Below are positions 11,285 to 57,664 of a stretch of DNA of 64,000 nucleotides, piece by piece. Position 1 is the first letter of the stretch. Every line of letters starts with the position of its first letter. The stretch comes from Octopus vulgaris. Lineage: Eukaryota. Location: positions 170,624,001-170,688,000 of the forward strand of contig OX597815.1 in assembly GCA_951406725.2 (NCBI GenBank). Direction: 5' to 3'. Under the pieces are notes generated by a model. The model was not told the origin of the DNA. It worked only from the letters and a program-made list of their open reading frames with translations, and ran no database searches. The translations under genes and the position numbers were made by a program.

Positions 11285-12050
11285 AATTTTGACACAAAGT
11301 AAGCAATTTTGATGTGAACAGGTCGTCTATCACATCGACCTCAGTACTCAACTTGTACTTATTTTTTCTGTTCCAAATGGATAAAAGCAAAGTCAACCTC
11401 GACGGAAAATACACTGAAAACGAAAATGTGGTCGGACAAAAATGTTACCAAGAATCTTTTGTGTGTCGCGTTAATGATTTGACCAGCTCACCGTTTTAGC
11501 AATTCTAAAAATATTAATTTTATATAAATACAAGGCTTCAGATGTAGGGAGTGGGGTTAGTTGATTATATCGATCCTATTAGTTACTTCAATAGTACATA
11601 ATTTTATTCACAATGGGAGGATAAAATGCAGATTTGAATTCTCTTGACAGAAAATAAACGTCCGTGACTAAATGCCACAAAGTACGGTGTCTGACACAAA
11701 CAATTCAGTCAACTATTGATTTCTAACATGCACAGGGGGCCTCGCCTCTGGGAACGAGTAAAGTGGATTATATCAAGAAATGCATTTAACTGGCCACGTA
11801 ATTTTGTCGAACCTCAAGAGATATACGGTAATATTAAACTCGGTCAGAAGGTATTTCGAATGAAGTTCAACTGAATATCAGTTAACTATCGCTACAATTA
11901 TAATATTAATTTCTTAGCCAAACACAAGGACAGAGTTGGGAAAAGTGGTAAGTCAATTAAATTATACCCTTATTGCCTGGTATTTGGTTTTGTCAAACCC
12001 ATAAAATATGAAGTTGATCTCGCAAGAATTTGGAATCTATAAAACGACTA
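11285..12050 (-). mobile_element. Cluster of about four decayed family B SINE fragments
   Basis: Repeated degenerate cacaagg...gtcgattatatcgacc...tacttattttatcgacc...aaagtcgacctcg motif near 11290, 11530, 11730 and 11920. Confidence 0.5.
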
Positions 12051-14150: not shown

Positions 14151-14369
14151 AGCCAGCATGATGCATATGCTTTCGGTAATTTGTTGGAAACGTGAGTATT
14201 TTTAATTAATGTCTCGAAGTTATTTTGGTGTAGGAGTTTATCGAAAACTTTTTATTCAATCAACTAATAATAAATATGCTGCTGCTGCTGATGATGAAAA
14301 TGATGGTGATGACGAAGATGATGATCTTGATAATAATAAAAATAATAATACTTTCTACTATAGGAACCA

Positions 14370-14600
14370 GGCCAGAAACTTGGTGGAGGGGGTAAATCGA
14401 TTACATCGAACCCAGTACTCAGCTGTTACTTGTTTCATCGTCCCCGAAAGGAAGAAAGGCAAAGTCGACCTCGGCGAAATTTGAACTCAGTATATAAAGA
14501 CGGATATATAGTAGAAGACACTTGCCCAAACTATCACGGTGTGTGACTGAACCCAGAACCGCTGCTTAGCAACCAAGCTTATGACCACTCAGCGAAGCCT
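14370..14600 (-). mobile_element. Family B SINE fragment followed by a family A-like SINE head fragment
   Basis: aatcgattacatcgaacccagtactc...ccccgaaaggaagaaaggcaaagtcgacctcggcgaaatttgaactcag, then tagtagaagacacttgcccaa...gactgaaccc. Confidence 0.7.
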
Positions 14601-14823
14601 GAGTTTGTGTAACAGCCTTAGCTTTTTATCTTTTATGTCTTACTTTGTGCAAAATCGACCCCAAAACTTACTTTGAAAATCTGGTGCTTATTCATTCATT
14701 CACGTTTGCCAAATTGCAAAGATTATTCGTGGAATAATTAATTTTCTAAATGAAATCTCTAAAATTTGCTTCGTTCGAAGTATAACAAAGAAAAGCTTTA
14801 TTAAATAAATATATACATATATG

Positions 14824-15080
14824 TTGGGTTGATGCATAATTATTGCATTTTATACAACAATTATTGCATTTTATTCAACAAAAACATTAACAACATGTAG
14901 CAAAAACATCTTTAAATGACTATTCCGGAGCATATTCACCGTCTGCTCCAATTACCGCTTCCTATTTACTTGGCAGACAGTTAAAACGTCATTTGAAGAC
15001 ATTTTTGTTAAATATTGTTATAGTTATAGTTAAATAAAATTTGTTGATAAAAAACCCGCAATAATTATGCACCAACCCAA
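14824..15080 (-). mobile_element. Mariner-derived MITE (about 257 bp)
   Basis: TIRs ttgggttgatgcataattattgc and gcaataattatgcaccaacccaa, TA on the right. Minus strand keeps a transposase C-terminus remnant, CLPSK*EAVIGADGEYAPE*. Confidence 0.85.
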
Positions 15081-15272
15081 TATATATATATAAAGAGATA
15101 CCCAGTATTCATTCTTTATCGAGTGAAAAAACGGTATGGACGATTTGTTTTGGAGTCTGGCAATACCATGTACGCCTATGAGGATTTACTTTCCCAAAGA
15201 AACCTGTTTTTTCTCAAACTTTTTCTCAAACCTGTTATAATGTGATACATGCCTTTGGTGTGGTAATTGTAC

Positions 15273-21180: not shown

Positions 21181-24012
21181 CTCTATCTATCTATCAACCT
21201 ACCAATTATCTACCTGCACAACCATACAGCTATGTATCATATAGATACGAAATAATACGATACATTGGCTATCAACCTACGTATATCTGCAATATCTATA
21301 ATTTCCGAGTGTAACACTTACCAAAGCCATTCATTTTAACCTATACTTATACGACACAACATTTATAAATCACCTTAATTCATACACAATCTCATCTGCG
21401 GATTACATCATGCTATTAAATTTCCGCTTCTACCCAGAACCCTCCATCTATATATGAATCGCGCTGCAATTCAAGATAATTCTTTCTTACTATTAACAAC
21501 GGGAGAACACCATATACAACAATAAAACATGCTGATGACACAAAAGTAAATTTGTAATACTTATATACAATGCTTGAACAATATTTACAGTGTACATAGA
21601 AGATAGTAAAGAAAGCATAAGCATCACATAGGAATCGCACTCGCAAGCATTATTTTAAACAATGCAAAGTATAGTGCAGATGTGCCTATAACAAATAAAC
21701 ACATCTGCAATGCTCAGAAATAGTAGAATAGAATTATATGCGCAAACTTCATTACTCTCTAACATACAAATCCCCATTGTATGACAGAATGTGTTATATA
21801 GACTCTAACGAAACTAAAGTATATTATATCTGAAGCAATTGGTTTGTGGATCTTAACTACTCATTCGGAGGTCTGCCTATTTACTATAGATCTACTAATC
21901 ATATTTGCCTAGGGCTAAAGTACAACAAAAGCAGTGATTTAATCAACTAGCTACTACTGAATTATTCTACATTCATTAACAATGTATTTCTTTTGATAGC
22001 ACTGAAGTGATTTTCCCAGTGTTTATGAAGACGTATTTGTTTTAAAATCTTGTTTTTATAGCTAATTATCTATCTATATAGGAAGATTAGAATTAAGCAT
22101 TCATTCAGATCACTTTATTTATTTATTTATTTATTTTGCTTTAAGAGGAAATTACATCCTTTTTTCTCTTCTTGTCCTTCAATAGTAACTTCGTTTTATG
22201 ATTTTGCAATTTATGTTTATAGACATTATCCTGAAGCTTTATATATTTCTGAGATTCGAAGATTTCGAGGTTAGATACTTGGTTGATTAAGCATTTCTCT
22301 AACATGAAAGATTTATTGAAATTCTACTTGCTTTCGTCTTAAGTAGTTTACTTAAAATTGCTTCGGAGGTAATCTTGGCTTCGTATTACTAATAGTTAAT
22401 AGGAAACAGTGATAGTGATTAAAGATAGTTGTTTTATAAACATACATAAAAGAAAACTTTGTTCCTTTAGGCAAAGATCTTCAAAATATTGGACACTGTG
22501 TTGAAAAACTGGTGAAGGATACTCGGAATATTGTTACATATGTCGGTAATAAAAGTGATTAAAACAGAGGTACAATGTGACTAAGTGGGATATAATAAAG
22601 TGTAGGAACCGTTACTAATGCTTCCTTGAAATACAGGAAATGAGAAGTACGTTTTCTTTCTTATTTTTAAATAATAATATCATCACTGCATAAATAATGC
22701 TTGCAGTACTTTGATTCATTCAAAAAGATTTCACATGTTTAGCGAAAGAACGAAAATAACATAAAAGGTTACACTTAACATCCAACACGAATATTTGTTA
22801 TTAATATTCTCCTGCTTCACAAATGCCCCGAGTTGCATGGAATCTTATCAGTAACTCTGTGTTTGTTTATGATTGTATTAATGTGAAACTATTACTAAGT
22901 GAACACGTACACACCTTTATGTGAAAGTCACTGGTATCACATGTTTGCGTTCATAAGTGTATTTATTCTTCAGTCAGTATGTATGCGCGCATGCAATAAA
23001 TTCGTACATATTTATATCATTACTGTGTACTGCGAAGATTTCCACTATTTCTCATGGTTGAATGTTTTTTGAGATTCTTTGACGATTCTTATATATTGAT
23101 TTGTTGCTTTGGGAGAATGCCACATGATATTTGGGTTGGCTCTGTTAATTAACACGACGCATGTACATAGCTGCTACTTATTCTATCGAACCTGGAGGAT
23201 GGAATTTAAAAGCATTGAACTATGCAAAGCTTAATTTAATGTTATATATTTCTGATGTAGTCACTTCATAACTGTTTACAGTTTAATAGAATATAGCATA
23301 CGCATACAATTTCTATTTCCGTGCGTGGAAGATCGAACGCAATACTATAAGTAAACAAAATTACTCAGTATTTCCCATTAGGTTCAATGATATATCGAAA
23401 TATCGTTATAGTGTCAGTGGGAAATTTAATATTCTTTGTCGGTAAAATTGTTTTTCGCTCTGTCGTTTGCATCAGAGCAAAATTCTGTGTCAGTGAAAGA
23501 ATTTGAAGACAAATTCGTGATATTTACCGAGTAGTCAAAATATTTTCCATTCGGTTATCGCAACTTTTCATATGTAGAAATATTATTTCTTTATATCAAA
23601 GAATGTTACACACACACACACACACACACACACAAGTGCCCCCTCACACACACACGCACATATTCTGTTTTACTCTTTTATTTGTATCAGTCATTTGACT
23701 GTGGCCATACTGGGTTTATTTTAGTAAAACAAATCGACGCCAGCACTCATTCTTTGCCTAACAGCTAGGTTAGAGGGACGTAAGCACACCAGGATCGGTC
23801 GTCAAGCGATGGTGGGGGAACAGACACACAAACATACATACATATACACACACACACATATATATATATATACGACGGCTTCTTTCAGTTTCCGTCTACC
23901 AAATCCACTCACAAGGCTTTGATCTGCCCATAGCTATAGTAGAACACACTTGCCCAAGGTGCCTCGCAGTAGGACTGAACCCGGAACAATATGGTTGGTA
24001 TGCAAGTTACTT

Positions 24013-26037
24013 TATTTCATTCGATTTGCCATTAAGGCATTACACAGAAGTAGTAGCTGTGGGCTAGACGAGGACACGATGATGATGAAATGACAGAAAT
24101 GGTTAATGGGAGAAGCAAGCATTGCCCGCTGATTGTTGCATTCTCGAAAACATTGCTCTTTTTATTTAAAAACAAAACAAAATGAGGCACCAAACATCTT
24201 ACCTCAGTTCAAAAATATTTGACATAATCGTCTTTACAAATTGAGAGGCTGAGCATCTTACCAAAGAATACAAACAATATAAACAATGAAAATTGAGGCA
24301 CTAAGACCTCTTATCCTTTCTCTCCAATCAGGCCATATGCCTCCTGCAGGCACTCCTGTAGTTCCAGGTGGGTGCGCAAAAAAGCAAAGCTATCCTGTTC
24401 CTTCGGAAAGGAGTCCATCACCCTGAACATTCCAACTTCCGTTAGCGACTCCGCAGTTACTTGCGGAGGCCAATACAGGTCTTCAGTCCAGGGCAAGGTC
24501 CCTCCCTCCGGCCCTCCAGCTTCCTTACGAAGCTCTGTATCGCCCCTCCCTTATGGAAGAAGATCACAATATCATCCGTCATAGCACTTGGAGGAAGCCA
24601 CAGTTTCCTCCGTCGGTGGCACAATTCCCACCGACGAGGTTTCAGGACATGCTGGCAGTGCAGTACCAACCGTCGGCAATGTCCCATACTTTGTATTTTT
24701 CTTTTTTTTCACCCTTGTGCTACGGGAGGTTGTTGTACCTCTGCTTTATTCGGAGGATCTTCCCTCTCTCCTGCAGCTTTAAGTTCCTTCGGTGAGCAAC
24801 CGTTGTTGCTCACCTTCTTCCTTTTATTTTTCCTTTTTTCGAGGAGGCCTCCACCTCCTCGACTACCTTCATCTCCTCCCCCCAAAGGTGAAGCGGGGGC
24901 CGCTACTTATATTAACTGCTCCAGGCCCCTATTTAGGGTACAGTTCTTATTATTATGCCCCGCTTCCAGGCACAGGTAATACTTACGGAGGGCGTCCCTC
25001 GAGAATCACCGTATACCTAGAACCAGCATTTTAAGAAATTCTTGAAACACCAGATTTTTGGCTGATTGGGTCCACAGGGTCAAAACCGCTTTTGATACCA
25101 CTCAACCAGCGCAGGCAAAATTTTGTCATTGAGGAGCTTGGCTCCGCTGCCACCAAGACCCCGGCGGATAGTGTCTTCTATCCACTCGTGTTCTATCCTG
25201 AGTGACAACTGTAGACCCAAGCCCTAATCAACTTCGTCCCACAATAAGTGGGAAGAAACAATATATCCTCGCCCTCTAAGGGCTGACTTGCAAAATTGCG
25301 AGCCTCTTCAGAAGTGTCAAATAGCAGCCACACCGTCGCATATTTGACACCCCTGGAAATAAATTTTATAGTTGGCATATACTCCGCCAACTTTCTTTCT
25401 ATGTCGGTCTTTATAAAGAGGGCGATGGTGTCGAGCGACTTGGAGTACGTTTGCAGCACCACCGTCCTCTCCTCAAAACTTTTTATCCACCGTTTGGGTA
25501 GGACAATTTCGCACTCCAGCACCTTATCTTTCTTTGCCATATTGAGAGCAAAAAAAGTTCAAACCTAAGTTCAAAAAAAGGTCCGAAGTCTAAACAAAAA
25601 GAAGATAGAAGAAAGAAGGAAGGTAGTTCAAAACACAGCAAAATAAAGCACAATTCCGGCCGAGAGTACTTCTGGCCTAGGGTAATCCACGAGCAGGAAC
25701 ACAGGGCCACAAAATTGGTACGAGTATCACAAAGTTTTGGTAAAATCCACAATTTTTGTTAAAATTCCACAATTTTTTGGGAGGTGAGACACGCCCCCAA
25801 AACAATAATTCTCACAGCTAAGTGAGTCACTTAGCGCGAGTCTACAGGCAGATAAATATCCGGGACCCGGTGAAGATTTCTTATTTACAAAAAGCAAAAC
25901 AATATCAAATAACAAACCCCGCTAAATCTCCTCAAAATCAGATGCCTACCTTACAGTCGCGCCTTCGACGTTTTTCAGTTGAAGCGCGCTGCGAAAGCAC
26001 GTCTTGACAGCATTCAGTGCAAAAACAACAGACTCAC
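24013..26037 (-). mobile_element. ORF1-only non-LTR retroelement (HAL1-like, L1/Tx1-type ORF1), 2025 bp
   Basis: Degenerate 11-bp TSD gcaagttactt (24002-24012) and gcaagctgctt (26038-26048). About 500-nt 5' UTR, one decayed gag-like ORF, about 300-nt 3' UTR ending ...aatgaaataaa. No room for an ORF2. Confidence 0.85.
24311..25540 (-). pseudogene. Frameshifted ORF1/gag-like protein with RRM-like region and CCHC zinc knuckle
   Basis: MAKKDKVLECE...ERTVVLQ...VWLLFDTSEEARNF...; then YTVILEGRPP and, after a frameshift, (Y)YLCLEAGHNNKNC = CX2CX4HX4C with first Cys TGT>TAT (24940-24981); basic low-complexity linker; C-terminus ...WPPQVTAESLT...LQEAYGLIGEKG*. Confidence 0.8.
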
Positions 26038-26272
26038 GCAAGCTGCTTACCATACCGCCACTCCTGCACCTATATATATATATATATACATATATATAAC
26101 TCACGCATCTGGAGCATCATCGTGAGTTTTTGCCTTTTCCACAGACCTCTTCTGTAGTGTGTTTCTTCTGGGTGATATAATTTCATATTACCACCCGTGC
26201 TTGTGTTTTATCCTGAATCTTGGTTTATTTTGTGAATGAGAGCGTTTGACACTGCTATCATCGGTAAATCAC

Positions 26273-34266: not shown

Positions 34267-34480
34267 GGTCATATGGCGCAGTGATTAACAGCGCGGGTTA
34301 CTAACCCCAAGATTCTGAGTTCGATTCCAAGCACTGACCAGAACAATAATAATAAAAACATCGAAAAATACGTTAGGAATCAGAACCCAGGTTCGAAATT
34401 TCCCCAAGAAGCGTTGTGTTAACAGCAAAAAAGATGAGGACAAATATCCATCGAACGTACATAATATAAATAATATTCTC
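34267..34480 (+). mobile_element. tRNA-like head + (AAT)n + PLE-type terminal segment (hammerhead core deleted)
   Basis: Cloverleaf-like 34267-34341 (ggtca/tgacc acceptor, gcgc/gcgc D stem, A box tggcgcagtga, B box gagttcgattcc). Downstream sequence is homologous to 55265-55410 (-) except for the missing CTGATGA...GAA core. Confidence 0.75.
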
Positions 34481-34489
34481 AGGTATTTC

Positions 34490-36300
34490 TATTTTTAATA
34501 GTGGATCAAGGTTCTTGATGGTAGTGTCGATATATAATTTAATAAATGCTGTGTACCTGAGCTTATTTATTATGAAAGTTGCTTTAGCACATTTAACGAG
34601 ACCAAAACCCATCCCGATGTAATTGCTAAATTCTTCAGCAGTTGTTAGCTGCTCTTCAAGTTCTTGGTCATTTCTTGCAAATAGCTTTAGATCGTTCATG
34701 TAAAACAGTTGGTTTATTCTCTTGGTAAGAGTTTTGTATTCATATCCGGTGTTTTTCAATGAATTTCAGAGTGGGATCAGCGCCATGCGAAAAAGTAATG
34801 AGGAGAAGGACTCACCTTGAGAGAGGCCTCGTTTGATGTTGATGCTGTTGTATTTGCTCATCCAATGGTTTTAAAAGAGATCAAGTTATTTCGTAAGAAT
34901 TTGGAGATGTACTTCTGTCAAACATTTCAGCCAGAAGTTAGCGATGCGGGCCAGTTAAGGAGCTTTCCGTTTGTGGTACCTAATAAACCACGTTAGATCT
35001 ATTCTGATTGCCACTCAGTTCTGTTCTTCAACTTCATACAGTTTCTCCTCATGTTCTATTCGGTAAACGTCAGCATTATAATCTTATTCTTTGCTCCACA
35101 TCTTCTTCTAGAACTCATCCAATTTGTCGATCCTTCACCTCTATTTTACTTTTTCCAATTTACCTATGAAACTTTGCGCCTGTTTTGAACATTTTATTTT
35201 GTCGATAAGATTTGTTTCATTCATCATATCTTCTAAGCCGTTGGGCTTTTAACTGTATACGCTATTTCAATAGTTAGTTAATAGCACGGAGGTTTATAAG
35301 ATCTCTGGTTTGATATTGTTTTATTTTTCTAGACTTTCTTGTTTTAATATTTACTCCTGTAACAATTTCACCGAGAACTGATACATCCGCCCGCAGAGAT
35401 GTAATTACTTATTTGTATTTTTGTCTTTCACTAGAAGGTTTATCGACATATCTGATGTTTTTCTTTGTCATCTAATACCTAGGTGAGCAGTAAGTATTAG
35501 AGCAATGGAATAGACAAGATTAATTTAGATCGTTATATCAATTTCCTTATTTCTTAAAATCTGTCTTCGAGCCAATGTTATATATCATGATTTTGTAGTT
35601 ATTCTTTGTGCCGCTTCTAAACTTTGGCAGCGGTTCTAAATTAAACTCAGTGTTATGAATTCACCCATAATGTCTTTTACTTTTGCAATTTTTTTCTTAT
35701 AATTAACCTCAACATATGTGTCATGGCTAGTTTAGTATTCTTGCGGTAATTCTACATATTCCTATTTTTTCTGCATCTCTTTTCAACGCTGCTCTTTGCT
35801 CAGCTTCTCTGTTCTTCACAATGCTTTTCTTACAATAGGTTCTGTGTTTCATCTATATGGCAGCTGGTTTTATTTGGTCTCCCATGACATATCTGTGTCC
35901 TAATTTGGTCAATTTCATCTTTTGTTAGTCTTTTGTTCTTAATGATAATTCTACGTACTTTGCTTAATTTATTTGCATCTATGTAGCTTCGTACATTATT
36001 ACCTGCTAAAGTGTAAGTTTGTACAATGAGGTTATCATTTGAGTTTTGTTGGTCGTTGTAGAAAGCTTCCAATACATCTCTATAATCCTCTCTAGCCCAT
36101 TTTATGAGTTTCGCTTTTGATGGTGATCCTATCCAGTGTTGCTACATGTGTACGATTAGAATTCTCCTGGTCCTGATTAACTGCTAGATGATTTTTTTTT
36201 CTGTTGGAGAGTTAATTCCAGCAGCAGGATAATACAGCCCTTGTTGTTCCTGGCGATGACTGATCTTGCATGAATTTTGTCTTATGGTTAAGACATCACG
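34490..36300 (-). pseudogene. Decayed R4/Dong-clade (RLE) non-LTR retrotransposon, 5' part
   Basis: INQLFYMNDLKLFARNDQEL...IGMGFGLVKCAKATF (YMDD motif), IKRGLSQGESFSSLLF (GIFQGDSLSPLLF-like), and N-terminal KWAREDYRDVLEAFY...YIDANKLSKVRRIIIKNKRLT. Confidence 0.82.
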
Positions 36301-36659: not shown

Positions 36660-36925
36660 GAGGCGGCGAGCTTGAAGAGTCGCTAGCATGCCGTCTTTAC
36701 GGTATGCGTTGAAATTCTGCCGAGGTTTACTTTGCCTTTCGTTCATTCAAGGTTGATAAAATGAGTACCGGTTGAGAAGTGGGGTCGATGTAAACGACTT
36801 ACCCATTCTCCAGAAATTGAGGGTTTCGTGTCAAAATTTGAATTTATTATTATCTAGGTGGCTATCACGCTGGGCAAAATGTTTAGCGGTATTTAGTCCG
36901 ACTTGTCGGTCTGAGTGAATTCAAC
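36660..36925 (+). mobile_element. Family B SINE plus a second head fragment
   Basis: aggcggcgagct...gccgaggtttactttgcctttcgttc...gataaaatgagtaccggttg...ggggtcgatgtaaacgactta. Confidence 0.7.
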
Positions 36926-40153: not shown

Positions 40154-42461
40154 ACAATTATATATACCGAGATACATATATATATATATACATGTATTAC
40201 ATATACATACCCATATGTGCACACAAATGTGCATACACACCTGTATGCACATTTGGAACTGAGAATTTCGGTGTAGTAGTTTCGCATTCTGAACATCAGT
40301 GTATGAACCCATACCGATAATGCACAGTTGTACAGAAGAGATTAGCTTCTCAGAGACAGCTGAAGAGACAAGGTGACGGATAAATATTCTTTTGAAAGGG
40401 ATTTCACAGGAATACGTTTGCTATATTTTATAACCTAACTACTCGCATCAATGTACAACTTGTATCTCTTGGCTTAGATATTGGAGACTTCAACATTTAA
40501 ATGACAGACATCAGTGAGTTTGCGCTTACACATGACACAGAGGAATTTACGTGAAATTAGATTGCTCGCTCCCGAGAATTGAATAATCAGTTACCTTCCT
40601 GAATAATCTAACAAATATTTGAACACCTGGAACATATAAATTGAGACGAAAACTTTAGAACATGCTGAGTATGGAGATTTGTTTCTAATTATATGCAAAG
40701 AATATAAGTGGCAATCAGCAATATGCTACTGCAACAAATGCAAGTGTCCCTGACAAATTCTGGAATCAAATGAAAGGTATATTTTTATTATATCAAGGTT
40801 GTTCATCAAAAATAGACCATGATAGGAGTACAATGCTGGAGAGACTAGCAACTACTATGGCATTTCGTGACAATTTAACTAAAGAGCGGTGTTATACTTA
40901 TAAATGTCATCGAGGGAAAAACAGAAGTATTTCTCACTATGGTTCAACAAAAGCAAAGGTATTCAAGATATTCGCAGGTAAAAATCAGTAATACATTAGC
41001 ATGGTGTATGGGACACCACTGATTACACATAATGCATTCAAGAAGCCAACTTGTCTAAAAAGAGTAAAATAGCAATAAATATATTTAGACGAGAATAACA
41101 CCTAAATTTCGCAGCTGCTAGAGAAGGGGAAAAGCTTTTCATGTCTATTAATGAGTGCAAAAGGAACGTCTGCCAATAAGCAATGGCTCCTATCCAGGAA
41201 AAAGTACTCGTGCAATGGAAAGTAATTCCTAGCTGATAAAAACACTTGAAAAATAAAAATTAATTGGTATATCAAATAAATCTGTTTAGTACTGGAAATA
41301 GAGAAAAAATATCTCAATGTATGACATGAGAATCTTCTTCAACCTCATTAGAATAATTTATGGTGTTAATATAATGATTCCAACATCACTGGGAGCTAAA
41401 GACAGTACAGAACTTATACAGTAGAACGTGAGTGTCAACAACCTATGGAAAGATAACTTCAAAGATCATGATTGTGCAGCCAAAAGTAGGCTATTATTAC
41501 TCAACCTTTACTTTACATGCACCATGTGACACTTCAGAAAACAAACAATGTATCATTCCCGCTATAGAACTTTGAGCCACTCGGGCGACTGCTAGGTTTT
41601 ATAATGTGTGTTGAAAAGGCAGCAACTCCAATGCAATATACATCAGTAGTCTCGTTTGATTTCACAAAAAATTCTAACGGCTTTAAATTAGCTAATAGTT
41701 TCCTACATTGAATGCAGCAGCCTGAAAGCTGTGTTTTCTTGTTAAGGAGTTTTGCTTTTTGTATTTTCTCAGAGGGAGAATGGGGCCGTTAGAAGATTCG
41801 GGTACATAGCGAATGACCATGTCAACTATATTCCAGATTATTATGACAGGACACTTTACTAGTCCAAAAGTCTTCAGATAAAGTGGGATAGCGGTGTTAA
41901 TTTTCTTTGCCTCTGGTTCTATATAAATGCAAACACTGAATGAACATTCCCTTCAAGTTGTTGGCAATGAACGCCGTGTACAATTTCATGTTGCTTCCAA
42001 ATAGAGCAAAGGTCGGTCCACGTTGAAACGGCTGTCTTGGAATTGAAGACTCGGGAAGGAAACAGATTGGTTTCGGCATTTCTATGCAGGTGCTTGGTAA
42101 AAAGGTTGTGCGCATGTATACTTTTGCTACTGGTTAAGATCTATAATGCTGGTTACAAAGTTGCCTCTATGTGAACATAAGACCAAAAGTTTTCTTGCAA
42201 AATTCAAAATCCTGACTGAAACTGACTATTAAGGGTTAAATTAATTTATCACCCATTGATAATCAGCAACCCAATTGGATTTCTTTCTCGAAACTTAGAC
42301 CGTCCGTGTCAAATCTATTAGGCTTGCTATCTCATTGATAAAACGTTGAGTACAACCGATTTAAATCGGAAAACGTTTTCAGGCTAACATACATAAATGT
42401 ACACACACACACACAAGAACCCATATATGCGTCTCTATATGTAAGTATTTAAATATACGTA

Positions 42462-42915
<454 letters not shown>

Positions 42916-43669
42916 GTGTATGTTTATGTATATATATATATACGTACATGTATATTAAATTTGATAAGCTGTGTATTATTTACTTATCAACTCTTTCTAT
43001 ATAATGAATACTTGCTAGCGTTATGCAATTTCAATATTGAAAATATTGTTGCCAATAGTATATTTCAGACTTCAATGCAGAATTTTAGAGATATTTTCAA
43101 CCTAAATTCAAATATATATATCAAGATATATCAAGATGGCGCTGAACTAACAACAAGTGTGTTAACGTGTCTCTCCTAAATATTAAAGAAGTCCTTCCAG
43201 AGATCGATGTTATCAGAAGCGAAATTGTCTGCAAAGCGAATATAAGTGATAGTACAACAAGTCACTGTATTTGAGAAGAATATTGTCGCTTTTGATATAG
43301 TATTTGCAACTAGAACATACTCGCGAATACACGTGTTAAAACGCACGTGTGTTACTTCCCGAAATCGAAGTGAATTTTATTCTTCGTCTGTGAATCAACA
43401 AGACACAGTATTTTTGAGAAGGATATTTTCGTTTTTGATGTATATCTGCGTGTTCTGAAAAAAGCCTCTGAAAAATTTGCTGCTTAATACCAAATCGCTT
43501 AGGAAAATACAGAAAGTATCGTCAAACTTTTGCATGTGCTAAATCGAAACTCAAATCCCTTTTGTTTACAAAGTGCGCTTGGGGAATATAACAGGTCTGT
43601 CTTGTCTATCTATCTTCCTTTCTTATAAAAAGGAATCACGTAAGTACTCTCTCAGCCGGTAAGGTAAGA

Positions 43670-43990
43670 TATTATTTATTTTGTTATCATTAGTGTTCTT
43701 TCAAACAGAAAATAATTAAAAAAAAAAAAAAAAAAGATATAAAAATATAAAAATACACGCTATTCTATCTTTATAATCTTTATAATTTCGTCCTCCGTGC
43801 CTGCCACGCACTCTCTCTTTCTCTTTCTTACATTTCTATTTCTATCTCTCTCATACATTTTTATTATTTGTTATCATTAGTGTTCTTTCAAACAGAAAAT
43901 AATAATTAAAAAGATATAAAAATACGCGCTATTCTATCTTTATAATCTCTCCCTCTCTTTCTTACATTTCTATTTCTATCTCTCTCATAC
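43670..43990 (+). repeat. Tandem duplication in the LINE 5' UTR
   Basis: ttgttatcattagtgttctttcaaacagaaaataat...cgctattctatctttataatct...tctttcttacatttctatttctatctctctcataca occurs twice (about 43680-43857 and 43868-43991). Confidence 0.9.
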
Positions 43991-43994
43991 AGTT

Positions 43995-44815
43995 TATACC
44001 TTATCTGTCTCCCCATCCACCAGACCCTCTATTTCCGATCTCACTCTCCCCTCCTCCCTCTCTCTCCCTCTGCAATCGTTTCTCTTTCTGCATCTCTCTC
44101 AGATCAACTTTCTCTCACCTCACCCCCTCTCTCAGTTCCTCAACTTCACTCATTCTCTCTTGTATCTATATACCGCCCTCTTTCTCTCTCTCTCTCTCTG
44201 TTACTCCCCCTCCCTCTCTCTGCCTCTTTCCTCTCCGCTCCTTCACAGGTCAAACCCCTTTTCCTCTTCCCCTTCTGTCCCCTTATTTCTTTCTCTACAC
44301 CACCCTCCCTGTCCCTTTACTACACTCTGTTGCGCCCCCTCTCTTCCTCTTCCCCCTTTTTTCTTCCTACCTTTCCTCTCCCTATTCCCTCAAAGGCTCA
44401 CCCCCCTGTCTCTTTTTTCCTCTCTCTGTCTCCTTCCTCAACACCACCCTCTCTGTCCCTTTACTTCACTCCCTGGTACCTCTATCCTGCCCTCTCTCTC
44501 TCTCCCTCTCCATTTCATCTCTCTCTTCCTCTCCATTTTATCTCTCCGCCTTTCTTCTCCCTGCTCCCCCTAGGGTCCACCCTCTTGTCTCACTTTTCCA
44601 CCCTGTCCCTTTCTACTACACCTCTATCCCGCTCACTCTCCCCCTGCTGACCTGCCATTCTTTCACCTTTCTCTTTTTTCCCTCTTATTTTCTCTCTTTC
44701 TCTCTTCTCTCAGGACAATCCCCTCGGCTCTCTCTATCCCCCCTGGCTTTTCTCCTTTCTCTTCTCCCTCTCCATATCTCTCCTTCTCTATCTCTCTCTC
44801 TGTTCCTATATTTCA
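43995..44815 (+). repeat. About 800-nt polypyrimidine tract in the LINE 5' UTR
   Basis: Strongly C/T-biased plus strand, ending tttcactag immediately before ORF1. Confidence 0.9.
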
Positions 44816-44825
44816 CTAGAAGAAA

Positions 44826-45734
44826 ATAGCAAGAAACTGGTCTGCGAGAGAGGTGCAATTGTTCGTCCGCGCTTGGAAGATCGCTGAGGACGACTCGCCG
44901 AACGACATTATTGCTGCGGCGCTGAAAAGCAACAATTTTTCGAGAACCACCGCCCAGATAGAGCGAAAGAAGAGAGAAGTTATCCGTTCGTACGCTCTAA
45001 TCAGGCAACATGTGGACACACTGGACATCATCCTGGGAGGTGACGGCAACAGGGAGGGCCAAAAGGATGAGGAAAGCATCCAGAGCCAAATGGAGAAGCC
45101 TGGAACACAGGGAAACGATGACACATGTCCAGCTTCCAACACCACAACTGAAGACCAAAGAGGTGCGATGGCCGCAAGAAAGGAAAGGCACCCTGGAATT
45201 GATGGGAAGCAGGAGGTAAAGGGTGACAGAATCAAGGCTAAAGGAAGCCCTGTCCAGAGAAAGCAGAGGGACCCCAGCAAAAACTGTAAGGGCAGGGAAA
45301 GAAACACCTGAAAATTCTACCTGAGGGGGGACTGCTGGTACGGCGTTGAAGGTGCAAACTGTCGCTTTGCACATCGGAGGCCCTACCAAAACCGCACGGA
45401 CGCGAGACAGAGGTCCCTCCCTCAGGGAGAACAAAAACAAAAACAAAAACAAAAAGTTAAAAGAAGGGAAAAAAGCGCACTGACCACTACTGAAAGGCGG
45501 TATGCAGATGTGGTGCGCGGAAACCCAACAGGTGGCCAGCTTCACCCAGATGTGAGAAGGGCGGCAGCTGAACAGGAGTCTTTTTTGTGCATGGCACAAA
45601 AAATTGTTCAGCAGCTGACCTGGCTACAAGCACAAAGCTGGAACTACCACCACATAAGGCCACCTCCAACAGATGCAGGATGGCCACCACAGACACCAAC
45701 ACCAACACACACACCACAAAAATATTTCTACTGA
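44826..45734 (+). pseudogene. LINE ORF1: Myb/SANT(trihelix)-like N-terminus + CCCH zinc finger; one in-frame stop
   Basis: Track ORFs 44853..45311 and 45510..45734 are in one frame, separated only by TGA 45309-45311, which occupies the first Cys of *KFYLRGDCWYGVEGANCRFAH. N-terminus (I/M)ARNWSAREVQLFVRAWK...IIAAALKSNNFSRTTAQIERKKREVIRSY. Probable start aaaATAgca at 44826 (ATG>ATA). Confidence 0.8.
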
Positions 45735-48689
45735 ATGTAGGAGGGCTGCTGCGCGGAAACTGTAAAAAGAAAATTTCATTCCTGAGAGACCTTGTGACAT
45801 GCAATCAAGCTATATGCATGGCACTCACAGAAACACATCTTGAACCCGATATAGTGATGCAGAAATACACATGCCGCAATATGCAGTCATACGCACAGAT
45901 AGAAAAGGGAGGAGCCATGGTGGAGTTGCAATGTACATCCGAGATGACCTCACGCCCCAGGTCCTGCTGTCATATTCAAACTCAGTATGTGAAACTCAAA
46001 TTGTACACATAAGACAACTGAATATCGTCATATGCACTACATATCGCCCACCAGATGCCCCAAAACACTCAGGCATGTTTGAAGACTGCCTAACAAAAAT
46101 AGGAGAAGTCCTCACCAACCTTGAACAGCACAACAGTGTATTCTTCATGGGTGACTTTAACCTCCCCAATGTGGAATGGCCTGGGGGGCAGATGCTCCCA
46201 GGGATGACACACCATCAGCAGGCACAGGTGGAGTCCCTGCTCCATCTCACAAATGCCTCTTTCATGGAGCAAATAGTTCTGCAACCAACAAGGGCAGATA
46301 ATATACTGGATCTCTGCTTCACAAACAATATGGATATTATCCATAATGTTAATGTGATGCCGACAATGATCTCGGATCACAACATAATAGAGCTGTCTAT
46401 GTATGGAACAAAAGCCCCCGCAGACACACAGCCTATACGAAGCACCCACCATCTCTCCAACTTAAACTTTCATAAAGCCAACTGGAAGTCGATTGAGAAA
46501 GAGATCCTCAAACAGGATTGGCCTGAATGTCTCTCCACACCGGACATAAACATGAAACACAAACACTTCATGTCCCTAATACAAGCCATATGTGACAAAT
46601 ATGTCCCAATGTGCAGGGCCAGCACACACAAGAACAAAAACAGGATCCCTAGAGAAAGGAGAATTCTTATGAGACGACGGACAAGGATTGCAAACCGCCT
46701 GAGCAAGCACACCAAAAGTGGTGAGAAGTCTCGGCTCGAAAGAATGCTAATGGAAACTGAGAAAAGTCTACATCAGTCCCATGAAAAGGAGAGAGCAGAT
46801 AAAGAAGCTTGGGTAATAGAAAATATAAAATCAAACCCTAAAGCTTTCTTTAAGTTTGCCAAAGAGACAGCCACAGTGCACCAGAGAATAGGACCTCTCT
46901 TCCAAAAAGATGGCTCTCTCACAGGAAATCCCACGAGGATAAGTGAAATACTGAACGAACAGTTCCAAAGTGTGTTCACTACACCTCTAGGACACAGGCA
47001 AGTAAACAACCCAGAAGAATTCTTTGCCACTTTACCAGCGGCCAAAGAGACAAAAATTGAGTACATCAACATCGAAGAAGATGATATCACACTAGCCATT
47101 GATGAGATTGACACAAACTCAGCTGCTGGACCTGATGGATTCCCAGCGATCCTTCTCAAATCGTGCAAACGAGCCCTTGCAAAACCGCTACAGCTTCTTT
47201 TTCAGAGCTTTCTTGCAAGTGGTAAGCTCCCAGTCAAACTGAAAGAGGGGGTAATATGCCCTATCCATAAGGGAGGTAGCAGAGCAGATGCTAAAAATTA
47301 TAGGCCTATCTCTCTGACCTCACACATCAGCAAAGTCATGGAACGAATAGTCCGTAAGAAACTAATCATGTTCCTTGAAGAAAATGACTTACTGTCTGAC
47401 ACCCAGCATGGATTTCGACCAGGTAGAGGCTGCCTAACACAGCTCCTGCAACACTATGACTGGGTGTTGAAACAGCTACTAAATGGCTCAAATGTGGATG
47501 TAATATATCTTGACTTTGCAAAAGCCTTTGATAAAGTCGACCATGGTATGATCTGTCACAAACTGCGTGGTCTCGGCATAGGCGGGAAACTTGGAGAGTG
47601 GCTGCACAACTTCCTAAAAGACAGAAAACAGGCAGTTGTGAGCAATGGAGCCACCTCCAGGGAAACGCAAATAACAAGCGGTGTCCCACAGGGCACTGTC
47701 TTGGGGCCACTGATGTTCATAGTGGCCCTTTCAGACATGCCTTCAGTTGCTACGATGACCACCCTTGCTAGCTATGCAGATGACACAAAAGTCTCCCACG
47801 CAATACAAAACCCTGAAAATATTGCGCATCTGCAACATGAGCTGGACACAATATACAGGTGGGCTGAGGACAACAACATGCAGTTTAATGCAGGTAAGTT
47901 CCAGGCCCTGCGCTACTGGCACACAAAGGTAAATGACGTGAAGACTGGATACACTGGCCCAGGAAGAATTGCAATCCCTGAGTCAAAATCAGTGCGTGAC
48001 CTGGGCATTGACATGAGCAATGATGCATCTTTCCAAATGCATATTGCTAATCTGGTGATAAAATGCAGACGGCTAGCTGGATGGATTCTCCGAACTTTCA
48101 GAACAAGAGAGAAGGAGACACTGATGGTCCTATGGAAAACATTTGTCCTCAGCCGCTTGGACTACTGCTCCCAACTTTGGTCACCACACAATATAAAACA
48201 AACAGCAGAACTCGAAGCAACTCAGAGAAGCTACACAAAGAAAATCGTCTCAATGCAAAATGTCAGCTACTGGGAAAGACTGAAGGTATTAAACCTCTTC
48301 TCCCTGGAGCGGAGGTGGAGAGATATGCAGTGATATACATCTGGAAAATCCTGGAGGGTCTTGTCCCAAACTTTGGCATTCAAAGTTACTCCAGCCGCAG
48401 AACGGGGCGCCGCTGCGTGGTGCCAAGGATTCCAACATCACCATCAAAATACAGGTCCAGATACTGCAACAGCTTGGGTTTCAGAGGACCACAGCTCTTT
48501 AACATCCTCCCTAAATGCCTGAGAGACTTACATGGTGTGGATGTGGGTTTCTTTAAAACTAAACTGGATCTCTTCTTGTTGGGAGTCCCAGATGAACCTA
48601 CCTCACGACAGGAGACACGGATGCGGGCAGCAGCATCGAACTCCCTTGTTGATCAAGTGCCACGTATCAGAGGTGGATTCACAAACTAG
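45680..48689 (+). pseudogene. LINE ORF2: APE endonuclease + reverse transcriptase (two 1-nt frameshifts)
   Basis: Endonuclease: LLNVGGL, LTETHL, YRPP, MGDFN, LDL, SDH. RT: NYRPISL, YLDFAKAFDKVDH, SGVPQGTVLGP, YADD, W...NNMQFN..K, LG, SLERR. Frameshifts near 45852 (PDI/SDAEIHMPQY) and 48316 (LERR/ERYAVIYIWKIL). Confidence 0.95.
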
Positions 48690-48999
48690 TGTAGCTCATT
48701 CAGCGGTGGTGCCCCAGCATGGCCGCGGCCTTCGGGCTAAAACATTTTTAAGGATTTAAGGATTTATATCTGCATAAAGGAAGAGGCTTTAGTGAAATGT
48801 AAATTCCAAAGAAAAACAGAATGTATTAAAAATAGATTTTCAATGCTAAAATAAGTTTAACAAAATCAGGGAAAACGTCTAAGTGGAATTCGAAAAATAA
48901 AGCGTTAAAATTGAGGTAATGATTTGTATGCATTGATACTTAAATATTCGAATTGAAATACACGCACAGATACACATATATGTGTACGTATGTGTGTGT

Positions 49000-49212: not shown

Positions 49213-49358
49213 GCAGCAGGGATACGAGTATTCTACGTTCTTCGTCAATAAGTAGCATAAATATTTGACAAATCGTTAAAGCAAAGTGTTAACTCATGAA
49301 AATAAAAGAAAATTTATCTCAACACTGCAGTCAGTATTTCAATATATGTTGTATTATA

Positions 49359-49575
49359 AGGCGGCGAGCTGGCAGAAACGTTAGCACGCTGGGCAAAACG
49401 CTTAGCAGTATTTGGTCTGTCTTTACGTTCTGAGTTCAAATTTCACCCAGGTCGACATTGCCTTTCATCGTCGTTTCGGGGTTGATAAATTAAGTACCAG
49501 TTGCGTAAAGTTGTTGATCTAATCAATCGGCCTCCTCCTTCAAAATTTCGGGTCTTGTGCGAAGTGCCGGAAAGA
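49359..49575 (+). mobile_element. Family B tRNA-derived SINE
   Basis: ggcggcgagctggcagaaacgttagcacg...gttctgagttcaaatt...ggtcgacattgcctttcatc...gataaattaagtaccagttgc. Confidence 0.88.
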
Positions 49576-50437: not shown

Positions 50438-50852
50438 TTTGGCACAAGAGGCTAAGTCGATTACATCATCCCCAGTGCTCAATAGTACTTATTTTATCGA
50501 CCCCGAAAGGATGAAAAGCAAAGTCTACCGCAACAGAATTTGGACTCAGAACGTAAAGACGTAGAAAATACCTATTTCTTTACTACACACAAAGGGCTAA
50601 ACACAGAGGGAACAAACAAGGACAGACAAACGGATCAAGTCGATTACATCGACCCCAGTGCGTAACTGGTACTTAATTTATCGAACCCCGAAAGGATGAA
50701 AGGCAAAGTCGACCTTGGCGGAATTTGAACTCAGAACGTAACGGCAGACGAAATACGGCTACGCATTTCGCCCGGTGTGCTAACGTTTCTGCCAGCTCGC
50801 TGTCTCTAAGCATTTTGTTCGGCGTGCTAACAATTCTGCTAACTCGTCGTCT
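50438..50852 (-). mobile_element. Young family B SINE (about 50570-50800) nested in an older family B SINE
   Basis: Older copy 50438-50570 resumes at about 50806 (ctaagcattttgttcggcgtgctaac...gctaactcgtcgtctt); the inner copy is near consensus. Confidence 0.8.
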
Positions 50853-53489: not shown

Positions 53490-53882
53490 GATAGGGAACA
53501 ATGAATTACACTGACTCCGTTACCTGATACTTAGTTTTTCGACCTCTCTAAAATGAAAAGCAAACTTGTACCCGATGGTATTGAAAATCAGAACGTAAAG
53601 AACCAGTGCATATTGAATGTTAATCTAAACATTATGCTAATGCGCCAACGGAACATCGTTCAAAATATTGGATTCAAATTTTGGCACAAGGCCAGCCATC
53701 TGGGGAGGGAATGAGTTGATTACATTGACCTCTGTGTTCAACTGATACTTATTTTATTGACCTCTGAAAGGATGAAAAGAAATGTCAACTTCGACAGAAC
53801 TTGAACTCAGATCGTAGAGACAGACAAAATGATGTTTAGCATGGTTCACGGCGTGGTAACGATTCGGCCATACCACCGCCTT
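53490..53882 (-). mobile_element. Two tandem decayed family B SINEs
   Basis: ggcacaaggccagc...gattacattgacc...actgatacttattttattgacc...ggatgaaaag...ttgaactcag...ccgccttaa. Confidence 0.7.
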
Positions 53883-55074
53883 AACATCGTTCAAAATATC
53901 GAAATTAAAATAACTTTTTGAAAAGCCACAAATCTAGTGTTCTTGAGTGAAAGGGTTAAAGAAAATATTGTGACTAAGTAAACAGACATTTTCTAAAAAC
54001 CCAATTTCATATTACATACTGTTGGGTACATATCAAGGCGATTCATGTTGACAATGAAACATTTAAACAAGAAATCTTAAGATTTTGCCACTGTCTCTCA
54101 TTCAAGTGTTGTTGCTTTTAAAAACATAACTATGGTGAAACAATTTGTTCTTTTAAGTTAAAATAAATAAAACACTCTTGCATCAGGCGACATTTATATA
54201 TTCTCCAACTGTTTGTTCTGCCAATTTCTTGTTTTATCTTACAGAGATCTCACAGTCGATTACAAATGAGACAAAATGTAAAGGACACCACAAAAAACGA
54301 TAAAAAAGGACGAAACATGTAAACAATGTTTTAAATAAGTAAACGCTTGCTTTGTTTTCTTTCTTGCTATGTTTTTACTATTCAGACTTCATTTCACATA
54401 CTCAAAGGTATTAGACGCATTGTTTGACTTTCATGTTAAAGCTAATTCAGCTAAAAGCAAACTGATAAGCCAATATTATTTCTTATATCTGGGCCTGTAT
54501 AGAAAATTCTTTTACTAAATGTTTGTATTTTATATTAATTTGAAACAGATATTTTAGACTCACTCATAACTTGATAAATCTTTTATGAAATACTTAGATT
54601 AAACATATCATACGGAAATAGTTCTGTACAAATTCACAAAGAAAAAAAATACAAACGTAAAATTTTAAGATATAGCCATATTTTAAATCTCCATGCTATA
54701 AAATATAAAACAAATAATACTAAGAGTATTTTTTATATCTAACACCAATATATTATTGAGAAAATACAGAAAAGGCTATATCTTCCTTCCGTGTAAATAT
54801 CTGGGAAATACACGATCGCATCTATATCAGGTTAGATATCCTAAATATATTGTGATTTGTCTTACGGACGAAAGGGTTTTATAAAACAAAGAGTATAAGA
54901 TTGTGAATAGATGACCAGTACATACCATATAAACAATTGATACAGGTTATTATCAGTGTCATGCCGTACAGTAATATTAGGTCACGATAAAAATAATTAG
55001 AGAAATCACAGATTGTAAAGAAATAAGCAGAAAATTTAGTTTTTCCCACGTAGTTATAACAAGAAATATCGGTT

Positions 55075-55238
55075 TCAAATTATAGCTAAAGGCTAGCAAA
55101 TTCGGGAAGAGGTTAAATCTATTACATCGACCGCAGTATTCAACTGCTACTTATTCTATCTACCTCGAAGGGATGAAAGGTGAAGTCGACCTTGGTGGCA
55201 TTTGAATACAGTTCAAAAAGAAGGGCGTAATGCCGCTC
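55075..55238 (-). mobile_element. Truncated family B SINE
   Basis: attacatcgaccgcagtattcaactgctacttattctatc...ggatgaaaggtgaagtcgaccttggtggcatttgaa. Confidence 0.75.
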
Positions 55239-55312
55239 TCTGCCTTTATAAGAAGAAATATTATGTACATTATTTACAGTTGACGGATATTTGTCCTAAT
55301 CTTGCTTATTGT

Positions 55313-55360
55313 TAAAACAACGTTTCGGCTAATATACCATCCAGCCTTCATCAGGTGCCT
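55313..55360 (-). ncRNA. Minimal type I hammerhead ribozyme motif
   Basis: Minus strand aggcac-CTGATGA-a-ggctgg-atggtata-ttagcc-GAA-ACGT-T-gtttt: intact core, 6-bp stem II, palindromic ACGT stem III. Confidence 0.7.
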
Positions 55361-55409
55361 TGAGTAAATTTCGAATCAGGGTTCTTATTCCTAAGGTATT
55401 TTTTCAATG

Positions 55410-55457
<48 letters not shown>

Positions 55458-55740: not shown

Positions 55741-56296
55741 CCAGTGGGCCCCACGAGCATAATTCAGGAAGTAATTATGACCTGCACACGGGATCCCGAA
55801 TGGCCTCCGCAGGTAGCTGTGGAGGTCATAACGTTGCACGTGTTGCAAAGGCTTAAGAAGCTCAATGAGGAATATCGCTTGTAGTCGGGCGGCCCCGACA
55901 CGCCATCCGCTTTGAGCTTGAGTGAGGCGTGGAAAATGGCGGGGTACGGGGTCACAAGCGATACTGAAGAGGACTATGGGTAAGAGGTTGGAAAGCCTCG
56001 ATATTGTGAACTCATAAGAGGTTTGAAACCTCATTCTGTTTTTAACCAAGGTACGAGGCGAAGTGCCTCAGTTTTGTGTTTTAATTATCAATTATGAACA
56101 ATTGTAAGAGTTTTATTGCATCATGTATGATAAATAAGAGAACAATGTTTTCGGGAAACAACAATCGGCGGGCATTGTCTGTTTCCCCCATTAATCATCC
56201 TTTTCGTTTTTCATCTCATATAACATTATATCTGTGTCCAGCCCACAGATTACTTCTTTTTCTATGTAAAGCCATTATAGCTAATTTAATGAAATA
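55741..56296 (+). mobile_element. 3' fragment of a second, diverged ORF1-only retroelement
   Basis: Frame from 55741: ...TRDPEWPPQVAVEVITLHVLQRLKKLNEEYRL*...LSLSEAWKMAGYG...* (stop 55981-55983), homologous to the C-terminus at 24311-24496. 3' UTR taaataagagaacaatgttttcgggaaacaacaatcggcgggcatt...cccattaatcat...gtccagcccacag...aatgaaataaa is homologous to 24013-24170 (-). Confidence 0.82.
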
Positions 56297-56432
56297 AAGA
56301 AGCTTGCTTCCCAACCACATGGTTACGGGTTCCACAGGGTGGAAACTTGAGCAAGTGTCTTCTACTATAGAGTCGGGCTGACCAAAGCCTTGTGAGTGGA
56401 TTTGGTAGACGCCAACTCAAAGAAGCTCGTCG

Positions 56433-56490
<58 letters not shown>

Positions 56491-56680
56491 TTTGTTTGTT
56501 GTTTGTGTCTGTGTTTGTCCCCCGCCATGACTTGACAGCCGATGTTGGTGTATTTACTTCCCCGTCACCTAGCGGTTCGGCAAACAGAGAATAAATCCTG
56601 GGGTCGATTTATTCAACAAATAGTCGTGCTCCAGCATGACCGCAGTGAATTGACTGAAACAACTAAAAGCCTAAAAGAGT
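56297..56680 (+). mobile_element. Family A SINE lacking the first ~22 nt of its head
   Basis: aagaagcttgcttcccaaccacatggtt...caagtgtcttctactatag...ccttgtgagtggatttggtagacg...(TA)n(TG)n...gtgctccagcatgaccgcagtgaattgactgaaacaactaaaag. Confidence 0.88.
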
Positions 56681-57664
56681 ATTAGTTTCAGTAAGTAGAA
56701 GCTGATCGAGAGGCAGTAAGGATATATGCATAACAACATCGACAGTAAAGGTATCCAATTGATAAAAATTCTATGTTGGGAATCATGTCTAATTTAATTC
56801 TAATGAATGAGCAAGGTTTTTGATTATGTCTCTTCGTAAAATAATAATATCAAATAAAATGAAACTATAATGTTAGCACAAGCACTGGAATTTATTTTCT
56901 CTTTAACATCACTACTTTCAAAATCTGCCTTGATGGATAGATCTAGATTGACATGATTTACATATTAACGGATTCAATAAAATTAATACATGTAAGATAT
57001 TGCGATTAAATCGAATGGTTGCAAAGTAAATCTGTTTTGTATATAAAAAAACAACAAACTGTGAGCATCATGAGAGCAAGTTATCGTTAAGTGATCAGCA
57101 ATCCATAACATTCTGTTGGAATATAAATTTGTTGATAAAGTTGAGAAGTTATATCTGAAAAATTTTATATAAATAGTTTTATCGATGATTTCGTTTTCCT
57201 CTTGAATATTTTTAATTTTCTTTTGCACGTATCTATGCTTTGCAATTCCAGGTGTCAGGTGATATTGGTATAGAGATGAAAATTAAATGCGGTCGTGCTG
57301 TTCAGGCAATCGGCAATAAAGCATTTCTTTTCTCTTCGTGATACAGACAGGAAGTTGTTGACAGAAATAATACTACGAGTTCGCTTTCAAGTTACCAATA
57401 TGTGTCATAGACATTTGTTGATTTTGCAATTTGTGCATTCTGTTAAATGAATGATGAAAAATATGAATCTAAAAATACAAAAATCCCACCAAAGGAATAA
57501 GCAAATAGAAGTGGAATGTGTAAATAGTAGACTGCTATATAAGCGAGTTTCTTAATTCTTTTCTCTCAAAGCGATCAATTGCTCACGCTTTATTTTATTA
57601 GATTACACGATATAAATATACACAAATCTCTCTATTCCTTCTACTACCTATGTATTTACATATA

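Follow-up and report, generated by a model that had tools for sequence, protein, structure and literature searches.

LINEs that have kept ORF1 and lost ORF2 are known from three clades, L1, Jockey and CR1 (PMC5786205). HAL1, which derives from the L1 clade, is described in mammals (PMC5753468, PMC5786205). Families of the Tx1 clade often target other transposons, for instance Tx1D and Mariner-N4, and are accompanied by non-autonomous passengers (PMC4494074), and the type I ORF1 variants found in animals other than mammals are reported to be consistent with Tx1 (PMC5203782). In Utopia, another site-specific lineage, 5'-truncated copies can lack the upstream target (PMC4640811). Octopus vulgaris harbors 80 L1-Tx1 families, 13 of which were recently active, and SINEs represent 11.6% of its DNA (PMC13282606); OR2 is an octopus CORE SINE (PMC4758252). 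No cephalopod ORF1-only or SINE-targeting element was found in the literature searched, and the term HAL1 does not occur in the available portions of PMC9115989, PMC8967140 and the supplement of PMC13282606, or in parts of the main text of the latter; Repbase, Dfam and the O. vulgaris repeat library may hold the family.

The stretch of O. vulgaris DNA analysed here (64,000 nucleotides, hereafter the window) contains two copies of an element for which these systems are the nearest comparison. We favor, by a modest preference, the view that it is an ORF1-only non-LTR half-LINE, probably of the Tx1 clade, whose insertions fall at one set base of the tRNA-type head of a SINE abundant in octopus. 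That it represents an ORF1-only family, whether half-LINE, composite or of a clade other than Tx1, is very likely. The features of copy 1 and of its host SINE are, in the order in which the minus strand reads:

26038..26072 (-): about the first 35 nt of the host SINE, its head, lying upstream of copy 1; 7-8 mismatches in 35 nt against the heads found at 58063 and at 42924
26038..26048 (-): 5' copy of the target-site duplication (TSD), 11 bp; one mismatch against the empty site at 42890-42900
24013..26037 (-): copy 1, full-length dead ORF1-only element, 2,025 nt, delimited by alignment to uninterrupted SINEs
25541..26037 (-): 5' UTR, 497 nt, with a CpG-rich first 150 nt and a 19-20-nt tandem repeat at 25728-25780
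24990..25540 (-): N-terminal half of ORF1, two tandem RRM-like domains according to the AlphaFold model of a relative; frameshifts near 25194, 25096 and 25025
24940..25010 (-): VILEGRPP motif and degenerate zinc knuckle lacking the first Cys; frameshift near 24985
24551..24939 (-): basic low-complexity linker, of low pLDDT in the relative, with two GAGG...CCTC motifs at 24857-24844 and 24741-24726
24311..24550 (-): last open stretch; C-terminal region with WPPQV (24472-24458) and the stop codon (24313-24311)
24184..24310 (-): proximal 3' UTR, three degenerate ~26-nt units, of which two keep the GAGG...CCTC hairpin intact; the first unit includes the stop codon
24013..24168 (-): distal 3' UTR, the best-conserved part in the copy-to-copy comparison, 78.6% over 154 nt
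24002..24012 (-): 3' copy of the TSD; one mismatch against the empty site; its first two bases complete AATAAA
23662..24012 (-): remainder of the host SINE, comprising the other part of the head, a microsatellite in the middle and a LINE-like tail; matched by BLAST and nhmmer to 42442-42925 and 57649-58057

Copy 1 is GC-rich relative to its surroundings and interrupts a SINE. Its edges, set by alignment to uninterrupted SINE copies, coincide with the boundaries at 26037 and 24013 given in the original prediction. It comprises a 497-nt 5' UTR, a 1,230-nt ORF1 span, its ATG at 25540 and its stop at 24311, and a 298-nt 3' UTR, which leaves no room for an ORF2. The element is flanked by an 11-bp duplication at 26048-26038 and 24012-24002 (AAGCAGCTTGC and AAGTAACTTGC), identical at 9 of 11 positions. 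Each copy differs by one base from the empty site AAGTAGCTTGC, present as a single copy in an uninterrupted SINE of the same window. The assignment rests on this empty-site comparison, in which the flanks were set against the uninterrupted SINEs at 42442-42925 and 57649-58057 and overlap by 11 bp; an unguided scan for repeats and TSDs returned low-complexity matches only and did not single it out. The duplication is a genuine TSD within an otherwise whole SINE. The TSD-bounded unit that had been predicted, with UTRs on both sides of the ORF region, is thereby borne out. The AATAAA with which it was said to end is also present; its last two bases are the first two of the TSD, and no poly(A) tail follows it in either copy. 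The first 150 nt of the 5' UTR show a CpG observed/expected ratio of 1.37 vs 0.78 for the window, and this CpG-rich end is a putative promoter.

Neither LTRs nor terminal inverted repeats were found in copy 1 (best local scores of 10 and 8 between the 300-nt ends), so that the terminal direct or inverted repeats expected of a gag-only LTR or DIRS element are lacking. The marks of target-primed insertion are present, namely the 11-bp TSD of copy 1, the 5' truncation of copy 2 and the lack of terminal repeats.

The second copy lies on the opposite strand:

55768..56296 (+): copy 2, 5'-truncated, of a divergent subfamily; nhmmer E 2.2e-24, matching about 24505-24013 of copy 1
56297..56682 (+): SINE body 3' of copy 2; its first base is model position 26 of the SINE, where the body next to copy 1 also begins

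This copy had been predicted to show the same join of stop codon and 3' UTR. The match is real, and the join aligns between the copies. Copy 2 has one internal stop, carries WPPQV, and ends its frame with a same-frame stop at 55981-55983, followed by a 313-nt UTR. An ORF2 after the ORF1 stop is absent from both copies, the 3' end being reached within 298 and 313 nt. Identity between the copies is 54% in the coding region, 72% over the whole UTR and 78.6% in the distal UTR, and the SINE halves beside them are 82.5% and 76.8% identical. Neutral copies of one master element decay evenly; the uneven divergence thus points to two different masters, both devoid of ORF2, rather than to a duplication. 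Segmental duplication is ruled out by this unevenness and by the end of the similarity at the end of the SINE. A local deletion of ORF2 is unlikely because copies only 54% identical share both the layout of stop and ~300-nt UTR and the end base. The earlier claim that ORF2 loss is a family trait and not a local deletion is thus supported by two divergent copies. Copy 2 has no SINE head upstream and no 5' TSD. Its 5' side abuts another repeat in reverse, a member of another SINE-like family, marked by (TAA)n tracts in its interior (55257-55752 (-); also 34270-34477 (+)), which may have removed the upstream part of copy 2. Both copies are old and dead.

The single ORF originally proposed for copy 1 is not open. 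Frameshift-aware alignment to an Octopus sinensis protein, LOC115225585, places 6 frameshifts and 2 stops in the span from 25540 to 24690. Further frame breaks lie upstream of the last open stretch (24550-24311), so that for the ORF as a whole these counts are minima. This gene model of 281 aa was the sole match of the copy 1 ORF1 among 5,566 candidates, and 197 of 274 aligned codons are identical (72%). We performed searches with the O. sinensis protein itself. A word-indexed search returned only the query, and a search among 1.84 billion representatives yielded 47 proteins, including itself, at E<=0.001. Of these, 43 were aligned as input for AlphaFold, four being left out as partial or chimeric. 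The resulting model (mean pLDDT 80.8) comprises two α/β domains, each of which matches RRMs, at residues 14-102 with Z 8.7 (rmsd 2.8 over 82 aligned) and at residues 102-185 with Z 8.2 (rmsd 3.0 over 78 aligned). The Z values are middling; both fold searches agree, and tandem-RRM proteins are matched at E ~1e-5. A knuckle comes after the RRM pair. The modeled fold is that of two RRMs plus a knuckle, i.e. a type I LINE ORF1 as defined in PMC4120745. The RRM-like region first noticed is thus of RRM type, although the model of the relative predicts two RRMs rather than one region. The AlphaFold check then proposed was run on this relative.

The VILEGRPP motif and the basic linker are present as predicted, but the knuckle next to the motif is degenerate. 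Its first Cys is replaced by Tyr in copy 1 and by Phe in the O. sinensis copy, and is kept in 19 of 20 relatives (counted from 21 regex rows, one of them spurious and dropped). Pfam zf-CCHC matches LOC115225585 only at E 0.058, and zinc binding may have been lost in the lineage of copy 1 and the O. sinensis copy. The architecture of V.VEGR.P followed by a knuckle is common to the members of the 47-protein family, with one knuckle each. None of the 46 relatives of LOC115225585 carries an EN or RT domain; as ORF1 and ORF2 are normally separate proteins, this has no bearing on autonomy. In the Atlas, ZCCHC3-like clusters with RBD and CCHC lie near the family at 0.90, which is a lead only. One gene model, P0019, carries 45 residues 64% identical to the N-terminus of the family fused to an integrase (rve) region, and is probably a piece of a third copy inside a chimeric gene model. 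The known evidence for the family consists of the two copies in the window, the O. sinensis model and this 45-aa fragment.

The C-terminal region had been described as a conserved domain. WPPQV is indeed common to both copies, but conservation between them extends over only ~16 residues around it (a score reached by 2 of 2000 shuffles). The region has no match in Pfam, its best PDB sequence match has E 0.24 and its best Atlas match 0.89 with low recognition, so that it is still uncharacterised, as had been stated. Five of six long relatives (P0006, P0021, P0024, P0035 and P0046) have a common C-terminal domain (0 of 500 shuffles each; 21 of 500 for the sixth), which has no Pfam match and ends with a helix and an F-P-x-D-V-G-like motif. 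In the AlphaFold model of P0021 (6 sequences, mean pLDDT 48), residues 302-357 form a β-α-(coil)-β-α arrangement, which suggests, with low confidence, a small α/β fold; the fold search with this protein was dominated by its RRM. By eye, the C-terminal region of copy 1 fits the domain of these relatives in two different registers. Homology between them found no support, since 131 and 511 of 1000 shuffles scored as well in HMM comparisons. A profile test gave 568 and 411 of 1000, HMMs trimmed anew gave 267-1000 of 1000, and with hhalign the figure was 108 of 200; a single hhalign run reached E 0.041 at a probability of 1.3%. With five sequences only, these tests are weak.

The 3' UTR harbors a repeated hairpin motif on which the original prediction was silent. 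The proximal UTR of copy 2 contains four ~26-nt units with three intact hairpins, and five units across both copies carry GAGG-Y...R-CCTC stems, the fifth pair of which varies (U-G, U-A, C-G). The GAGG...CCTC pattern occurs at 7 places in the window, all within the two copies. As the motif was chosen post hoc, a control allowed any 4-mer stem, and 1 of 1000 shuffle pairs matched the pattern. The two motifs in the ORF linker were equaled in number in 5 of 2000 shuffles of the ORF. Single units fold modestly, five of them giving z of -1.2 to -2.1 and the other two a z near 0 or above it, and the whole UTR of copy 1 is no more structured than shuffles (z 0.31). A structural role of these hairpins is a hypothesis. 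The distal UTR, in turn, is a candidate signal for the reverse transcriptase of a partner.

Copies 1 and 2 both end at the same nucleotide of the SINE head, model position 26, a coincidence not previously noted. SINE heads of this type number five in 64 kb, and the probability that two copies fall at one SINE base by chance is about 4e-5 by a rough estimate. This shared position is the observation that bears most on mechanism. The host SINE, which by inspection we take to be CORE-like with a tRNA-type head, gave no tRNA with ARAGORN or Rfam. Rfam returned only sub-threshold matches, nearly all on microsatellites and none inside copy 1, with no ribozyme or tRNA. The uninterrupted SINEs at 42442-42925 and 57649-58057 are 94% identical to each other and, judged from private changes (6 vs 26), form a younger subfamily than the interrupted pair. 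The UTR repeat units (24265-24175 (-), 55976-55990 (+)) start with GGTAAG, which also spans the SINE insertion point (26054-26046). This coincidence may be due to chance (about 0.07 by a rough estimate). GGTAAG also reads as a splice-donor consensus.

The analysis shows how the element is built, with a TSD around copy 1 and no ORF2 in either copy; both copies end at one SINE base, the relative folds as two RRMs, and a hairpin motif recurs in the UTR. From these observations we infer the following sequence of events, every enzymatic step included. In an active copy, Pol II would start at the CpG-rich 5' end, or transcription would read through from the SINE. The ORF1 protein would coat its own RNA, perhaps at the GAGG...CCTC hairpins, and join the particle, or the ORF2, of an autonomous partner. 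The sequence-specific endonuclease of this partner would then nick opposite GGT^AAG within the head of the SINE; another nick, 11 nt further on, would generate the TSD. Two T at the nick could pair with the AA of the terminal AAUAAA of the RNA, and no A-tail would be copied. Finally, reverse transcription would yield a full-length insertion, as in copy 1, or a 5'-truncated one, as in copy 2. Insertion into a high-copy repeat would spare host genes. Copy 2, with no SINE head upstream, resembles the truncated copies of Utopia (PMC4640811), and may by this analogy count in favor of targeting. The model is built on two copies, and the lack of a poly(A) tail and the modest folding of the hairpins count against it. 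The window yielded neither an autonomous partner that shares the 3' end or target nor any ORF2 that can be linked to the ORF1 family. The link to Tx1 is indirect.

Another retrotransposon in the window is relevant to the main alternative:

44820..48770 (+): separate decayed LINE with EN and RT (Pfam RVT_1 E 7e-30, Exo_endo_phos_2 E 6e-11), whose 3' tail matches the SINE tail

This LINE, which by inspection we take to belong to the CR1 group, is nearly full-length at 43675-48770 (+), with a long pyrimidine-rich leader. Its ORF1, interrupted by a stop at ~45309, gives weak matches to Myb/SANT-like (E 0.0037) and CCCH (E 0.012) sequences, and EN and RT lie in an ORF2 that is frameshifted near 45844 and again near 48330. 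A second fragment was seen at 62568-62989 (68%).

It is conceivable, if unlikely, that a SINE-ORF1-SINE chimera stemming from one ancestral insertion retrotransposes as a whole, its SINE tail being recognised by the RT of this LINE family. Such a composite would amount to a SINE with coding capacity for a protein, kept at full length in copy 1 and truncated at the 5' end in copy 2. Copy 2 does consist of exactly a SINE body and 0.5 kb of element, with no head. Site-specific targeting must invoke a deletion to explain the missing SINE head and 5' TSD, whereas a composite predicts their absence. The SINE tail matches the tail of the resident LINE (0 of 2000 shuffles), while the element's own ends do not (487 and 116 of 500 shuffles were as good); the same figures reject the resident LINE as a direct helper acting through the element's own 3' end. 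The distal UTR and the SINE body are also about equally diverged (78.6% vs 76.8-82.5%), and the SINE bodies beside both copies share a ~30-bp deletion and 9 substitutions relative to the two empty copies (other pairings share 1 and 0). These shared changes may merely reflect an older subfamily, each body having 26 private changes. The coding region, on the other hand, is far more diverged (54%) than UTR and SINE, so that a composite needs recombination of ORF1 onto a shared tail. The 5' UTR contains 13 runs of at least four T, which would stop Pol III starting from the SINE head, and in crocodilians the same question was settled in favor of independent insertion (PMC4494074). In its strongest form, this explanation has a SINE capture a LINE ORF1 cassette, make its own RNA-packaging protein and be copied via its tail by the RT of an unrelated LINE, which we consider unlikely. 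If true, a protein-coding SINE would join parts of two LINE lineages and would contradict a published statement that SINEs cannot encode a protein (PMC5786205).

Less probable again is an ORF1-only, site-specific element that comes from, or is served by, another clade, such as R1, I, Jockey, L2/CR1 or an element with a restriction-like endonuclease. Type I ORF1 with RRM and CCHC is also found in I, Jockey, R1, Tad1, plant L1, L2 and CR1 lineages, although the tabulated Jockey, L2 and CR1 proteins mostly have three knuckles against one here (PMC4120745). Target-specific families exist in R1 and in early-branched groups too, some of them at tRNA genes (PMC4640811), and ORF1-only elements have arisen from CR1 and Jockey (PMC5786205). 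Against such an origin, the Atlas neighbors include ZCCHC3-like proteins of chordates. Finally, internal-deletion products of a two-ORF LINE, or retrocopies of a domesticated ORF1 gene such as L1TD1, would make no self-sustaining family and would fit a total of two dead copies, but are very improbable given two divergent subfamilies with a common stop-to-UTR join, UTR length and 3' end, no poly(A), an O. sinensis gene model that is also truncated at 281 aa and, as weak evidence, no ORF1-ORF2 fusion among the 4999 candidates scored (range 1403-4005 aa only).

Other repeats were observed in the window, on which the repeat finder was swamped by microsatellites. A MITE-like unit of 393 bp with 152-nt inverted arms, 81% complementary, lies at 62063-62455, and an imperfect palindrome of 280 bp, possibly a MITE, at 14812-15092. 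An open stretch at 34376-34765 (-) contains an old reverse-transcriptase-like motif, YMNDLKLFA, with no Pfam RT match; we presume a resemblance to Dong-R4 elements. A further SINE-sized family is represented by at least 8 fragments, including 11325-11426, 14366-14504, 36692-36851, 49357-49558, 50447-50800, 53664-53883 and 55090-55224.

Under the favored reading of a site-specific half-LINE, two known habits, half-LINE and site-specific nesting, would come together in an element that has ORF1 alone and is tied to one base of a SINE head, giving a three-tier parasite chain of LINE, SINE and half-LINE. It bears on the open question of why ORF1 is kept once ORF2 is lost, which a comparison of copies can test, given divergent proteins on a conserved 3' end and a UTR hairpin as candidate binding site. 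Such copies are likely to be annotated as a SINE plus "unknown", or as gene models, as for LOC115225585.

The closest relatives of the octopus element are LOC115225585, with its 197 of 274 identical codons, and the two-RRM and CCHC family of 47, with which it shares the V.VEGR.P-knuckle architecture. Compared with this family, the octopus lineage starts directly at RRM1, most longer relatives having an N-terminal extension, lacks the first knuckle Cys, and has a C-terminal region that does not score against the domain of the five relatives. HeT-A is confined to telomeres. Like the octopus element, HeT-A (Jockey-derived) and Ag-Sponge (CR1-derived) are ORF1-only LINEs, whose protein is thought to multimerise with that of the partner (PMC5786205). 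The likeness is one of description, as host and target differ. Fixed-site insertion and non-autonomous passengers are known from Tx1L in Tx1D, Tx1-Mar and SINEU in Mariner-N4_AMi, and Keno in U2, where non-coding SINEs act as passengers and insertion is into DNA transposons or RNA genes (PMC4494074). The octopus element shares with Tx1 a type I ORF1 (RRM and CCHC, with a degenerate knuckle). A target preference may be a second common trait: both copies lie at the same SINE base, which hitchhiking could also produce. It differs from the Tx1 passengers in encoding ORF1 and in targeting a SINE head, and it offers no ORF2 to place in Tx1. The earlier derivation through L1/Tx1 is at most suggested; type I ORF1 also occurs in many other clades and is not diagnostic of Tx1 (PMC4120745).

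The protein itself is of the LINE ORF1 type, as judged from the two RRMs and knuckle modeled in the 72%-identical relative and from its family of 47. L1 carries a poly(A) tail. Neither octopus copy does, and no Transposase_22 match, the mark of the type II ORF1 of HAL1 proper, was found, two RRMs and a knuckle being predicted instead. HAL1 of mammals has ORF1 only, both UTRs and a TSD, and is non-autonomous (PMC5753468, PMC5786205), all of which the octopus element shares. Mammalian L1 ORF1, in contrast, is type II, with a coiled coil, one RRM and a CTD, whereas the octopus element combines two RRMs with a degenerate knuckle, lacks poly(A) and occupies the same SINE base in both copies. The original prediction of a cephalopod HAL1-like lineage therefore holds for an ORF1-only, non-autonomous, non-LTR family in octopus, with HAL1 as an analogy only: the octopus element works like HAL1 but is not HAL1 proper.
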